From Candidatus Pacearchaeota archaeon (lineage in GTDB: Archaea; Nanobdellota; Nanobdellia; Pacearchaeales; GW2011-AR1), in the NCBI GenBank assembly GCA_041649755.1, contig JBAZMK010000002.1, positions 26,247 through 90,246 on the forward strand: 64,000 bases of DNA, written 5' to 3'. Shown here piece after piece: positions 41,409-58,677 of this stretch; positions within the stretch are counted from its first letter, which is position 1; the number at the start of each line of letters is the position of its first letter. The notes beneath the pieces were generated by a model. That model made no database searches, had not been told where the DNA came from, and saw nothing but the letters and a program-made list of their open reading frames with translations. Made by a program: the position numbers and the translations under genes.

Positions 41409-43076
41409 ATGAAAGAAATTATTGCAAAGGAAATTTCAAAGGAGGTGAAAATAAATGAAAAAGAAATTCTGAATTTTATTGAAATCCCCCCTAACGAAGA
41501 AATGGGAGACTTCGCATTTCCTTGTTTCGGTCTAGCAAAATCACTCAAAAGGAATCCTCTTGAAATTGCAAAAGAACTAACTGAAAAACTAAGAAAAGAA
41601 ATCCCTAAAGAAATTTCCAACATTGAACAAAAAGGAGCATACATTAATTTCTTCATAGATAAAAAAATTTTAGTAAAAGAAATCTTCAAAAAAGCTTCCA
41701 GCAATAATTTCGGGGCAAATAAAGAAGGAAAAGGAAAAACGATAGCAATAGATATGTCTGCCCCAAACATAGCCAAGCCATTCGGAATAGGACATCTCCG
41801 TTCAACAATTATAGGAAACTCAATTTCAAAAATAGCTAAAATGAACGGATACAAAACAATCAAAATAAACTATTTAGGTGATTGGGGAACTCAGTTTGGG
41901 AAATTAATACTTGGTTACAAAAAATGGGGAGATGAAAAAAAATTAAAAGAAAATCCAATTTCACATCTCAACGAATTATATGTAAAAATAAATTCTGACG
42001 AAACATTAGAACAACCCGCAAGAGATGAATTCAAAAAACTTGAAGAAGGAGACAAAGAAAACTTAGAACTATGGAAAAAATTCAGAAAATTGTCCATTGA
42101 AGAGTTTGAGAAGATTTACAAAACTCTTGGAGTAAAATTTGATGTAATCTCAGGAGAGAGTTTCTATAATGACAAAATGGAAAAAATTATTGATAAACTA
42201 AAAGATAAAAAATTAATTCAAAAAGACGACGGTGCCGAAATAGTTAATTTGAAAGAAGAAGGATTAGGTGTAGCCCTGATAAAAAAAAGTGACGGAACAA
42301 GCCTTTATGTAACAAGAGACTTAGCCGCCGCAATAGACAGAAAAGAGAAATACAATTTTTCAAAATTAATCTATGAAGTCGGACAGGAACAAAAACTTCA
42401 TTTCAAACAGCTATTTAAAATATTAGAAAAAATGGGCTATGGCTGGGCAAAAGGCTGTATTCACGTTTCACACGGACTCTACCTTGACAAAGACGGAAAA
42501 AAATTCGCAACAAGAAAGGGAAAAACAATATTCATGAAAGATATTTTAGAAGAAGTAACAACCAAAGCAAAAGAAAATTTAAAGGAAAAGACTAATCTTT
42601 CTGAGAAAGAAATAGAAAAAAGAGCAGTCAAAGTAGCCTTATCAGCAATTTTTTACGGCGACCTAAAAAACTCCCCAAATAATAACATAATTTTCGACGC
42701 CGACAAATTTCTAAACTTCGAAGGAGACACGGGACCATATCTTCTTTACTCATACGCTCGGGCAAACTCAATACACAAAAAAGTAAAAAACGATAAACCC
42801 TTCAAAATTCTTGACATAAATAATTATGAAATAAAATTAATGAAAAAAATAAACGACTTCCCTGAAATTGTCAAAAAATCTTTCTCTCAACTTGCACCAA
42901 ATTTAATAGCCAATTACTCTTTTGAACTCGCCCAAATATTTAACGAATTTTATCACTCCTGCCCTGTAATCGGAAGCGTTGAAGAAGGTTTCAGACTAAA
43001 ACTCACTGAAACATTCAGAATAACTCTTAAAAAAAGCCTCGAATTACTAGGAATTGAAACTTTAGAAGAAATGTAG
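41409..43076 (+). CDS. argS: Arginyl-tRNA synthetase
   Basis: It has the class I 'HIGH'-region 'DMSAPNIAKPFGIGHLRSTIIGN', a C-terminal DALR-type anticodon-binding region and the N-terminal add-1 domain. It is 555 aa. Confidence 0.85.
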   Translation: MKEIIAKEISKEVKINEKEILNFIEIPPNEEMGDFAFPCFGLAKSLKRNPLEIAKELTEKLRKEIPKEISNIEQKGAYINFFIDKKILVKEIFKKASSNNFGANKEGKGKTIAIDMSAPNIAKPFGIGHLRSTIIGNSISKIAKMNGYKTIKINYLGDWGTQFGKLILGYKKWGDEKKLKENPISHLNELYVKINSDETLEQPARDEFKKLEEGDKENLELWKKFRKLSIEEFEKIYKTLGVKFDVISGESFYNDKMEKIIDKLKDKKLIQKDDGAEIVNLKEEGLGVALIKKSDGTSLYVTRDLAAAIDRKEKYNFSKLIYEVGQEQKLHFKQLFKILEKMGYGWAKGCIHVSHGLYLDKDGKKFATRKGKTIFMKDILEEVTTKAKENLKEKTNLSEKEIEKRAVKVALSAIFYGDLKNSPNNNIIFDADKFLNFEGDTGPYLLYSYARANSIHKKVKNDKPFKILDINNYEIKLMKKINDFPEIVKKSFSQLAPNLIANYSFELAQIFNEFYHSCPVIGSVEEGFRLKLTETFRITLKKSLELLGIETLEEM

Positions 43077-43211
43077 GGCTTGTAGTATAACTGCATTATG
43101 CACGGCTGACAGTCGTGAGATGCGGGTTCAACGAACAATTAGGTCTTGCGAATTTTTAACAGATTGAAACTATCCTGAGCAAGACATGATTGTGAGCACC
43201 GGCAAGTCCAT
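43077..43211 (+). ncRNA. Candidate structured ncRNA (unassigned)
   Basis: It is a 135-nt GC-enriched island (about 45% GC against a roughly 30% background). A 7-bp terminal helix GGGCTTG/CAAGTCC encloses an inner 7-bp helix GTCTTGC/GCAAGAC. No ORF is present. Confidence 0.3.
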
Positions 43212-43244: not shown

Positions 43245-43808
43245 TTAATTTTTTATTCCAAGAACATACAAAGTTTTTTTAAAAGTTTCTTCAGTAACCT
43301 TGGGAAATTTTTTATTAATAATTTGATATATCCCACAAAAATTCCATAACTCGTCAAAATTTCCTTCACTATTTTGAAATTTTTCTTTAAAGTGAATATT
43401 CCAATTAACCTGATTAAAATCTACACACAAACAATAGGGGCTAACATTAAATGTTAAAATCAAAGTTGCATCTTTCCAAAAATCAAGATAATCTTTCATA
43501 TGACCCCACTTGAAAGCTACATTGCTCTTTTTCATATCAAAATATTCTTTATAATTCCTATTCTTAACTTCAATAATCCAAGTTTCCTTAGACTCCTTAT
43601 CCATCACAACAAAATCTGGCATTGAAAGTAACCTTCTATTTGTTTCAGGTTTATAATTTGTCTTAATCTGTTTAATAATTTCTTGTTTATGATTTTCAAT
43701 ACCAAAATCCATTATTTCATATCCAGATAAATCAAAAAGGGTTCTAACAAAATTCTGCGAAGATCTTTCCTTTGCCTTAGATTCTGCCCAACCAGACTCA
43801 TTTTCCAT
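43245..43808 (-). CDS. Hypothetical protein with PD-(D/E)xK nuclease-like motif
   Basis: 'SMPDFVVMDKESKETWIIEVK' fits the PD...(D/E)xK core. It is 187 aa. Confidence 0.4.
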   Translation of the reverse strand: MENESGWAESKAKERSSQNFVRTLFDLSGYEIMDFGIENHKQEIIKQIKTNYKPETNRRLLSMPDFVVMDKESKETWIIEVKNRNYKEYFDMKKSNVAFKWGHMKDYLDFWKDATLILTFNVSPYCLCVDFNQVNWNIHFKEKFQNSEGNFDELWNFCGIYQIINKKFPKVTEETFKKTLYVLGIKN

Positions 43809-53069: not shown

Positions 53070-53140
53070 GCGCGATTGGTTTAGTGGTAGAACGTAACGT
53101 TGCCAACGTTGAGACACGAGTTCGATTCTCGTATCGCGCA
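53070..53140 (+). tRNA. tRNA-Gly (anticodon GCC)
   Basis: The sequence is GCGCGATTGGTTTAGTGGTAGAACGTAACGTTGCCAACGTTGAGACACGAGTTCGATTCTCGTATCGCGCA, with anticodon loop TTGCCAA. Confidence 0.85.
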
Positions 53141-53186: not shown

Positions 53187-53209
53187 GAGTTCGATTCTCG
53201 TATCGCGCA
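53187..53209 (+). repeat. Exact 23-nt direct repeat of the tRNA-Gly 3' end (T-arm plus acceptor 3' strand)
   Basis: GAGTTCGATTCTCGTATCGCGCA at 53118..53140 is repeated at 53187..53209, 46 nt downstream. This is att-site-like duplication. Confidence 0.6.
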
Positions 53210-58158: not shown

Positions 58159-58677
58159 ATGAAAATAAAATCAACACTTATTTCAGAAAAAGTAACTTCC
58201 AACTCAAAAGAAGCATTTGACTTATTCGCATCACAAAGGTTTGGAGAGAAAAAAGGAGAAAAAATTACTTATATGTTAAGCGAAGCACTCTATTTATTAG
58301 AAGATGGAAAAATAGAAATCTTTGACTCAAAAAATAAACTCTTAACTGAAGAAGAAGTTATAAGAAAATTTAAGAAAATAGATAAGAAATTCAAAACAAA
58401 ATATATCGTGTTTAAAGACTTAAGAAAAAAAGGCTACATTGTAAAAACCGCCCTAAAATACGGAGCTGAATTTCGCGTCTACGACAAAGGAATAAAAATA
58501 GAATCTGGACACTCAAAATGGATTTGTTTCCCAATTTCAGAAAATCAATCTTTAACGTGGCAGGAATTTTCAGCGAAAAACCGCGTCGCGCACTCAACAA
58601 AAAAGAACCTTTTAATAGCAATAGTAGACGAAGAGGAAGACATATCTTACTTTGAAATTAAATGGATTAAACCCTAA
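58159..58677 (+). CDS. endA: tRNA-splicing endonuclease
   Basis: 'YIVFKDLRKKGYIVKTALKYGAEFRVY' and 'HSKWICF' match the EndA catalytic-domain signature. It is 172 aa. Confidence 0.8.
   Translation: MKIKSTLISEKVTSNSKEAFDLFASQRFGEKKGEKITYMLSEALYLLEDGKIEIFDSKNKLLTEEEVIRKFKKIDKKFKTKYIVFKDLRKKGYIVKTALKYGAEFRVYDKGIKIESGHSKWICFPISENQSLTWQEFSAKNRVAHSTKKNLLIAIVDEEEDISYFEIKWIKP

Follow-up and report, generated by a model that had tools for sequence, protein, structure and literature searches.

A 135-nt element on the plus strand, lying 3′ of argS in the genome of a Pacearchaeota (DPANN) archaeon, is probably the relic of a disrupted, decaying tRNA-Val(GAC) gene at the edge of a variable gene cassette; rather than a new kind of RNA, the locus most likely represents a tRNA gene that is dead or in decay. 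It occupies positions 43076 to 43210 of the window, i.e., the 64,000-nt stretch of DNA that we analyzed. We propose that a tRNA-Val(GAC) gene would once have sat directly 3′ of argS in this Pacearchaeota lineage, and that its T-loop would have been broken after UUCAA by ~66 nt of hairpin-forming DNA, with the 3′ strand of the T stem losing its match to its partner. The damage would probably have come from a rearrangement at a tRNA-associated variable site. Transcription of the element would now probably occur only at the trailing end of the argS mRNA; there, between two convergent genes, its stable helices may incidentally serve as a 3′ structure. We infer that the locus no longer gives a translation-competent tRNA, because the resident EndA, apparently of the strict-BHB type, would not be able to remove the insert, and because, even after its removal, the product would lack a T stem and carry an alanine identity pair.

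The layout of the element is given in Table 1. Its first base (G) is the final base of the argS stop codon TAG (43074 to 43076); the sequence-only reading had placed the element at 43077 to 43211, and the element is real, but its true start lies one base earlier. Two independent assemblies (ENA ERZ27247363 and Logan SRR8542065) hold an identical sequence, and the element is therefore not an assembly artefact. The same reading had described a perfectly complementary 7-bp terminal helix enclosing an inner 7-bp helix (GTCTTGC/GCAAGAC). A 7-bp terminal helix is present, but its third pair is G:U; the inner helix is indeed perfect in sequence, and belongs to a longer inverted repeat with arms at 43135 to 43149 and 43179 to 43193 (87% complementary). 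More specifically, the insert hairpin starts with GUUC/GAGC (4 bp), followed by a 5-nt bulge (AACGA) and then by two 15-nt arms (ACAAUUA/UGAUUGU, a G/A mismatch, and GUCUUGC/GCAAGAC) closed by a loop of 29 nt. CCA is not encoded at the 3′ end of the element.

Table 1. Features of the element and of the genes discussed with it, in window coordinates.
Feature	Position	Strand	Basis or remark
argS (arginyl-tRNA synthetase, 555 aa)	41409-43076	+	Stop codon shares base 1 of the element
Acceptor-stem 5′ strand, GGGCTTG	43076-43082	+	Sequence, Rfam tRNA alignment, ARAGORN cloverleaf of spliced versions
U8 and A9	43083-43084	+	Directly 3′ of the acceptor-stem 5′ strand
Weak D arm, GTAT-AACTGCA-TTAT	43085-43099	+	Rfam alignment, comparison with the 5 window tRNAs
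G26	43100	+	Between D arm and anticodon arm
Anticodon arm, CACGG-CTGACAG-TCGTG, with U33 and A37	43101-43117	+	Rfam alignment, ARAGORN
Anticodon GAC (Val)	43108-43110	+	Rfam alignment, ARAGORN
Variable loop, AGAT (4 nt)	43118-43121	+	
T-stem 5′ strand GCGGG and T-loop start TTCAA (five bases)	43122-43131	+	Sequence
T-loop insert, ~66 nt (edges ± ~3 nt)	43132-43197	+	Folds, inverted repeat
ACCGG at the expected T-stem 3′ strand	43198-43202	+	Exhaustive deletion scan, ARAGORN drawings
Acceptor-stem 3′ strand CAAGTCC and discriminator A73	43203-43209 and 43210	+	Sequence, ARAGORN
Gene for a 187-aa conserved DPANN protein, PD-(D/E)XK nuclease-like fold	43245-43808	-	Convergent with the element
EndA tRNA-splicing endonuclease (172 aa)	58159-58677	+	Pfam PF02778 and PF01974 (tRNA_int_endo_N, tRNA_int_endo)

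Judged by its sequence, the element is tRNA-derived. Its 5′ two-thirds can still be recognized as a tRNA, from the acceptor strand through the D and anticodon arms to the beginning of the T arm. We identified a 7-bp acceptor stem with one G:U pair, U8, A14, A21, and a 5-bp/7-nt anticodon arm with U33 and R37; the claim that no anticodon arm fits is thus contradicted by a canonical one, accompanied by a D arm and a GGTTCAA T-loop start. The D arm is paired through G10:U25, U11-A24, and A12-U23, with a U13/U22 mismatch, and the T-stem 5′ strand and T-loop start are carried in identical form (GCGGGTTCAA) by the tRNA-Lys of the window. The Rfam search that had been proposed gave no match at gathering level, tRNA being the sole family to match: the tRNA model (RF00005) aligned to 43076 to 43130 (the first 55 nt) at 18.2 bits, against a gathering threshold of 29 bits. 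The E value of this match (0.37) is for 401 nt searched with 4227 families; rescaled by our own arithmetic, it corresponds to ~1e-4 if only the tRNA family and that stretch are counted, and to ~0.014 for the whole window. ARAGORN called no tRNA on the intact element, with or without intron mode. When the products of every internal deletion were submitted, it called tRNA-Val(GAC) only if ~64 nt were removed, and the accepted removals fell between relative positions 54 to 59 and 118 to 123, inside the T-loop. A search for tRNAs with a split T-loop across 0.95 Mb (115 loci in addition to the window) returned only the element and a duplication at tRNA-Gly (see below), with none in bacterial loci; given this outcome, the T-loop-split signature is no common chance product. 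Among the three candidates that the sequence-only reading had listed, the evidence supports the degenerate or intron-containing tRNA-like element.

The element departs from a working tRNA in several respects. First, G53-U54-U55-C56-A57-A58 is present, but a 5-bp T stem closed by G53-C61 with a 7-nt UUCRANN loop is not: the arm is interrupted by ~66 nt, and G53 stands opposite A61. Only three of the five bases of ACCGG pair with GCGGG, G49/G65 and G53/A61 being mismatched. None of the single deletions tested gave a 5-bp T stem, the canonical register having 3 pairs, and 4 pairs were reached only in a register that destroys or displaces the UUC motif; this exhaustive scan bears out the earlier assertion that no proper T arm can be made. 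The T stems of the other tRNAs of the genome are fully paired, one of them with a G:U pair. Second, G18, which with G19 makes the elbow contacts, is lacking from the D loop (AACUGCA), which has U G where the other window tRNAs, among them tRNA-Trp (loop AAAGGUA), have G18 G19; tRNA-Trp was used for this comparison as the other tRNA of the window with a 7-nt D loop. Third, the anticodon GAC and A73 fit valine, yet the acceptor stem bears G3:U70, a pair found in 0 of the 5 other window tRNAs. G3:U70 is the universal identity element for alanine, recognized by AlaRS.

Base composition and coding content were in part as previously described. The element is richer in GC than the window (45% versus 34.7%), with 50% in its 5′ part and 38% in the insert; however, the proposed GC island is modest, lies below the true tRNAs (49 to 60% in the five real tRNAs), and is matched in level by many coding stretches. 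The absence of an ORF was essentially correct, the sole ORF (61 aa, minus strand, 42953 to 43138) being mostly antisense to argS.

We also inspected the signals expected around a tRNA gene. A TATA-like box (TTTATAA/TTTTAAA) starts at -32 to -28 in all five window tRNAs (upstream of 23437, 36991 [minus strand], 45603, 53070, and 61028) and in 10 of 14 clade tRNAs (examples being found in L070, L071, L072, and L076). This spacing in the lineage of the window resembles that of the fixed-spacing promoters giving leaderless tRNAs in Nanoarchaeum. At about -30 of the element, the sequence is gaattactaggaatt and no such box is present; the nearest one is at -49, inside argS. Moreover, exact maturation of the 5′ end from a read-through transcript would cut into the argS stop codon, because base 1 of the element belongs to it.

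To place the element in its lineage, we compared synteny 3′ of argS in 19 related loci, the ArgRS relatives being annotated as Pacearchaeota or Woesearchaeota. In the closest locus (L001, 82% ArgRS identity), homology extends as far as the argS stop codon and resumes at the 3′ end of trmB; between these, from the first base after the stop, L001 carries unrelated DNA with a small ORF. Its stop codon is TAA, and the base aligned with the first G of the element is A. Four loci with 75% ArgRS identity (L002, L003, L006, and L070) keep only TAG-GGCTTGT-TGGTTCAA / GGGCTTGT..GGTTCAA of the element, matching its first 8 nt and GGTTCAA. We read this sequence as a putative further-decayed remnant of the same ancestral tRNA gene. 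Because a global alignment of the L002 spacer with the element was not significant (140 of 500 shuffles scored as well), it is the short identities, and not the spacer as a whole, that carry this reading. In the same four loci, the gene 3′ of argS encodes RtcB, the tRNA-splicing ligase (L002, 3241 to 4656, minus strand), and is convergent with argS; the RtcB-argS spacer measures 72 nt and opens with the GGGCTTGT remnant. No RtcB was found in the 64-kb window. Eleven further argS loci showed no trace of the element. Likewise, exact or degenerate element patterns gave 0 matches in JGI metagenomes, pattern searches of viral contigs gave 0 matches, blastn against phage and plasmid collections gave 0 matches, and by blastn against all fetched loci the element matched itself alone. 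The sequence-only reading had named a lack of conservation in related genomes as a ground for refutation, and the element was indeed not conserved in any relative reached.

Since L001 is homologous on both sides with unrelated DNA between, the element and the 187-aa gene together represent a replaced cassette; beyond the 187-aa gene lie genes for a TrmB-like regulator and then a methyltransferase. The 187-aa protein is identical to an NCBI protein assigned to a Candidatus Pacearchaeota MAG. Its family comprises 53 relatives in Pacearchaeota and Woesearchaeota, belongs to no Pfam family, and occurs in varied neighborhoods. Its predicted structure is confident (pLDDT 91) and weakly similar to PD-(D/E)XK DNA nucleases, i.e., a SPARDA nuclease domain, R.SwaI, and MunI. 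We rejected the 187-aa protein as a splicing endonuclease, as it has no Pfam EndA match and a PD-(D/E)XK-like fold, and the real EndA is encoded elsewhere in the window (Table 1). A link between the element and the 187-aa gene was likewise rejected, since homologues of the gene occur elsewhere without the element. Directly after an 81%-identical homologue of the 187-aa gene in L062 (3066 to 3125; also in L063 to L065), we noted a GC-rich stretch of ~60 nt; Rfam gave no match to it, and neither of its strands folded significantly.

Several observations run against a relic: (i) the helices are unusually intact for a pseudogene in a genome of 35% GC (acceptor 7/7, anticodon stem 5/5, and inner hairpin 7/7 plus 7/7); (ii) the insert lies at a known DPANN T-loop intron site, and GUUC/GAGC, with bulges on the correct strands, resembles a relaxed BHB; and (iii) a GAC decoder is needed, and neither the 64-kb window nor ~19 kb of extra flank contains another tRNA-Val. 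Regarding the last point, GUU and GUC account for 108 of 185 Val codons (58%) in six window genes, so a GAC decoder must exist somewhere. For annotation, we recommend the label of a pseudogene or relic, tRNA-Val(GAC)-like and disrupted; the locus should be listed neither as a new sRNA nor, unless evidence appears, as a working tRNA. It would also offer a small, concrete case of how tRNA genes decay and turn over next to a variable cassette when a DPANN genome is reduced. As DPANN tRNA sets are often reported to be incomplete, it is useful to know that some tRNA-like matches missed by tRNA finders may be relics and not functional genes in hiding.

We considered whether the structure itself might have been put to use. 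Under this reading, which we regard as unlikely, the element would be a co-opted tRNA-derived, Y-shaped three-helix RNA, which might stabilize or terminate the argS transcript at its 3′ end or might be a signal for processing or recognition. Compared with shuffled sequences, the plus strand folded with a z score of -2.63 (2 of 200 shuffles equal or better), the minus strand was not structured (z of +0.20), and the T-side hairpin region alone reached -3.05 (equaled by 0 of 200 shuffles). At minimum energy, the plus strand folds into a three-way junction formed by the acceptor helix, an extended anticodon hairpin, and a long T-side hairpin, as such an RNA would require. In all predicted folds, the anticodon hairpin is lengthened by an alternative 7-bp pairing (CUGCAUU/GAUGCGG, 43091 to 43097 with 43119 to 43125) that connects the D-loop side with the variable loop and the 5′ strand of the T stem, in competition with the cloverleaf. 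The position of the element between convergent genes, its start at the argS stop codon without a promoter of its own, and the stability of its sequence across three assemblies would also suit co-option. However, no relative has the element, so neither conservation nor covariation backs a selected structure; there is no T-run terminator in the sequence 3′ of it; no Rfam family matches it at gathering level; and fold statistics of this kind would be expected, function or no function, from helices inherited from a tRNA together with one palindromic insert. A cis-acting role of the element, e.g., as a 3′ structure of argS, is conceivable, but nothing observed points to it.

A further reading, to which we assign a low probability, is that the element is a functional tRNA-Val(GAC) gene whose ~64-nt non-canonical T-loop intron (at 58/59 or 59/60) would be removed at a relaxed BHB, with ligation by RtcB leaving an atypical T arm. 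That it is the sole tRNA-Val(GAC) of the genome, made functional either by non-strict-BHB removal of the insert (leaving a 3-4-bp T stem) or by use as a tRNA-like RNA with a greatly extended T arm, seems to us improbable. The insert-removal route would have the 64-66-nt T-loop insert cut by a plain alpha4-type EndA or by another nuclease. Precedents exist: another DPANN lineage, ARMAN-2, has introns in the T-loop (53/54 and 59/60) as well as tRNAs whose D arms are very poor (PMC3239211), known DPANN T-loop introns lie at 58/59 to 59/60 (PMC3239211), and the incomplete tRNA sets often found in DPANN have been attributed to unrecognised disrupted genes (PMC5829648). The element resembles these archaeal T-loop-intron pre-tRNAs in its DPANN host, in a T-loop interruption that directly follows U54-A58 (the insert starts 3′ of A58/C59, and DPANN introns are documented at 59/60), in an insert that pairs with T-loop bases as a 4-bp helix and runs into a hairpin, and in being missed by standard tRNA finders. 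Its intact acceptor and anticodon stems, an A73 that fits valine identity, the opposite-strand bulges of the 4-bp helix, the presence of EndA in the window and of RtcB in the clade (L002), and the abundance of GUU/GUC with no other tRNA-Val seen would likewise favor a working gene.

Judged by its splicing signals, the element is probably not such a gene. No canonical anticodon-loop intron was found by ARAGORN with introns enabled. For a strict 3-4-3 BHB, we enumerated all 4-bp helices with 3-nt bulges, requiring ≥2 bp in an outer or inner helix and comparing the products with the ARAGORN-accepted junctions; none yields a tRNA at 68 to 95 nt. A relaxed motif would have bulges of 1 to 4 nt or an hBH/HBh′ form and would be served by an endonuclease of broad specificity. 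The best BHB-like arrangement consists of h CGG/CCG (3 bp), a 1-nt bulge, H GUUC/GAGC (4 bp), a 5-nt bulge, and h′ ACAAUUA/UGAUUGU (7 bp); its bulges are on the correct strands, but the 5-nt bulge falls outside the reported range of 1 to 4 nt (PMC3239211). Read by hand, cuts 2 nt 3′ of each GUUC/GAGC strand give ...GCGGGUUCAA|CGGCAAGUCCA, a product devoid of a T arm. With UUCA/UGAG as H instead, again read by hand, the result is CGGG-UUCAA-CCCG (a 4-bp stem with a 5-nt loop), and the computed fold of that product has no T arm either. A two-intron model, in which CUUGC serves as the T-stem 3′ strand and introns of 11 nt and 54 nt are removed, was dropped as overfitting, because by hand neither junction had BHB support.

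The resident EndA (for which the Pfam assignment was found on the same gene in L117) aligns gap-free over residues 5 to 172 with the M. jannaschii enzyme (1A79), whereas alignment with the N. equitans alpha subunit (3IEY_A) leaves a 6-residue gap at a loop that has been associated with relaxed specificity. Being free of insertions, colinear with the M. jannaschii enzyme, and devoid of the N. equitans 6-residue loop, the protein looks like a plain alpha4-type, strict M. jannaschii-like enzyme in a DPANN genome. The alpha4 and alpha2 splicing endonucleases require a strict BHB motif (PMC3239211), and broad specificity accompanies the inserted loops L1 to L3 (PMC5829648). Thus, the functional reading faces several obstacles at once: no junction gives a 5-bp T stem, and rule-based cuts leave no T arm; no strict BHB exists for a strict-type EndA without a specificity loop; G3:U70 would invite alanine mischarging; a promoter is lacking where all other window tRNAs have one; the element is absent from all relatives; and no other T-loop-interrupted tRNA turned up in 0.95 Mb. 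Known T-loop introns differ: their removal restores a regular T arm (5-bp stem, 7-nt loop), and they are cut by an epsilon2 enzyme with an added specificity loop, and the known T-loop intron is 13 nt, compared with an insert of ~64-66 nt and bulges of 1 and 5 nt in the element. Were the functional reading nonetheless true, it would widen either the range of archaeal splicing substrates or the structural limits of cytosolic tRNA; if this were also the only GUU/GUC decoder, it would imply an unrecognised repair route for T-loop-interrupted pre-tRNAs.

The remaining suggestion, a C/D-box or H/ACA guide sRNA, drew on a GC-richer, structured intergenic stretch in an archaeon in which CUGA occurs twice, but is scarcely credible: no C box (RUGAUGA) is present within one mismatch on either strand, the two CUGA motifs (43106, in the anticodon loop, and 43175, in the hairpin loop) are internal and not in C/D order, the hairpin has merely a 1x1 mismatch and a 5-nt bulge with no pseudouridylation pocket, ACC and not ACA follows the hairpin stem, and no Rfam snoRNA or sRNA family rose above noise, tRNA being the only family found below threshold. 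We also looked by hand for a K-turn or K-loop, both atop the inner helix and in the 5-nt bulge, and rejected it because the 3-nt bulge geometry is absent.

Returning to the proposed disrupted tRNA-Val(GAC) gene, we looked into the origin of its insert. A MITE or other mobile hairpin was rejected, the insert being single-copy in the window (at up to 3 mismatches), with no further copy revealed by blastn of the window plus 0.89 Mb of related loci. The insert loop CGAATTTTTAACAGATTGAAACT (43148 to 43171) resembles the argS 3′ end CGAATTACTAGGAATTGAAACT (43040 to 43061), with which it shares the exact 9-mer ATTGAAACT, and the insert stem and flanks (UAGGUCUUG ... CAAGACAU) resemble the termini of the element (UAGGGCUUG ... 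CAAGUCCAU). These similarities may hint that the insert arose by local duplication; because the resemblance to argS is marginal (24 of 1000 shuffles score as well) and not colinear, we left them out of the argument. The split tRNA genes of Nanoarchaeum equitans also show a ~15-bp helix directly beside the tRNA body at the break point; however, they break at 37/38, whereas the element breaks in the T-loop, has its halves joined in cis by the 29-nt loop, and lacks a BHB at the helix base.

Finally, we compared the element with the scars that integration leaves in tRNA genes, as in genomic islands and prophages. T-loop crossover sites are documented for integrases, e.g., the T-loop attB of phage Ms6 (PMC1762012), and the element shares with such scars damage in the T-loop and a position at the border of DNA that varies from one close relative to the next and includes a nuclease-like gene. 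In contrast, no direct repeat of the tRNA 3′ part flanks its cassette: within the window, no part of the element has a second copy longer than 12 nt, and none is present at the far end of the cassette; nor was an integrase noticed beside it. Typical integration scars are, moreover, 3′ fragments, whereas the element keeps the 5′ part and both acceptor strands. A classic 3′-end duplication does occur at another tRNA of the window, tRNA-Gly(GCC) (53070 to 53140), where the last 23 nt of the gene (T arm and acceptor 3′ end) are directly repeated 46 nt downstream of the 3′ end (GAGTTCGATTCTCGTATCGCGCA, at 53118 to 53140 and 53187 to 53209); we count this among the points for the relic reading, as local context of tRNA-linked rearrangement. 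Site-specific integration into a tRNA gene usually leaves such a downstream copy of the 3′ end, and the tRNA-Gly repeat looks like an att-type integration scar or a small duplication.
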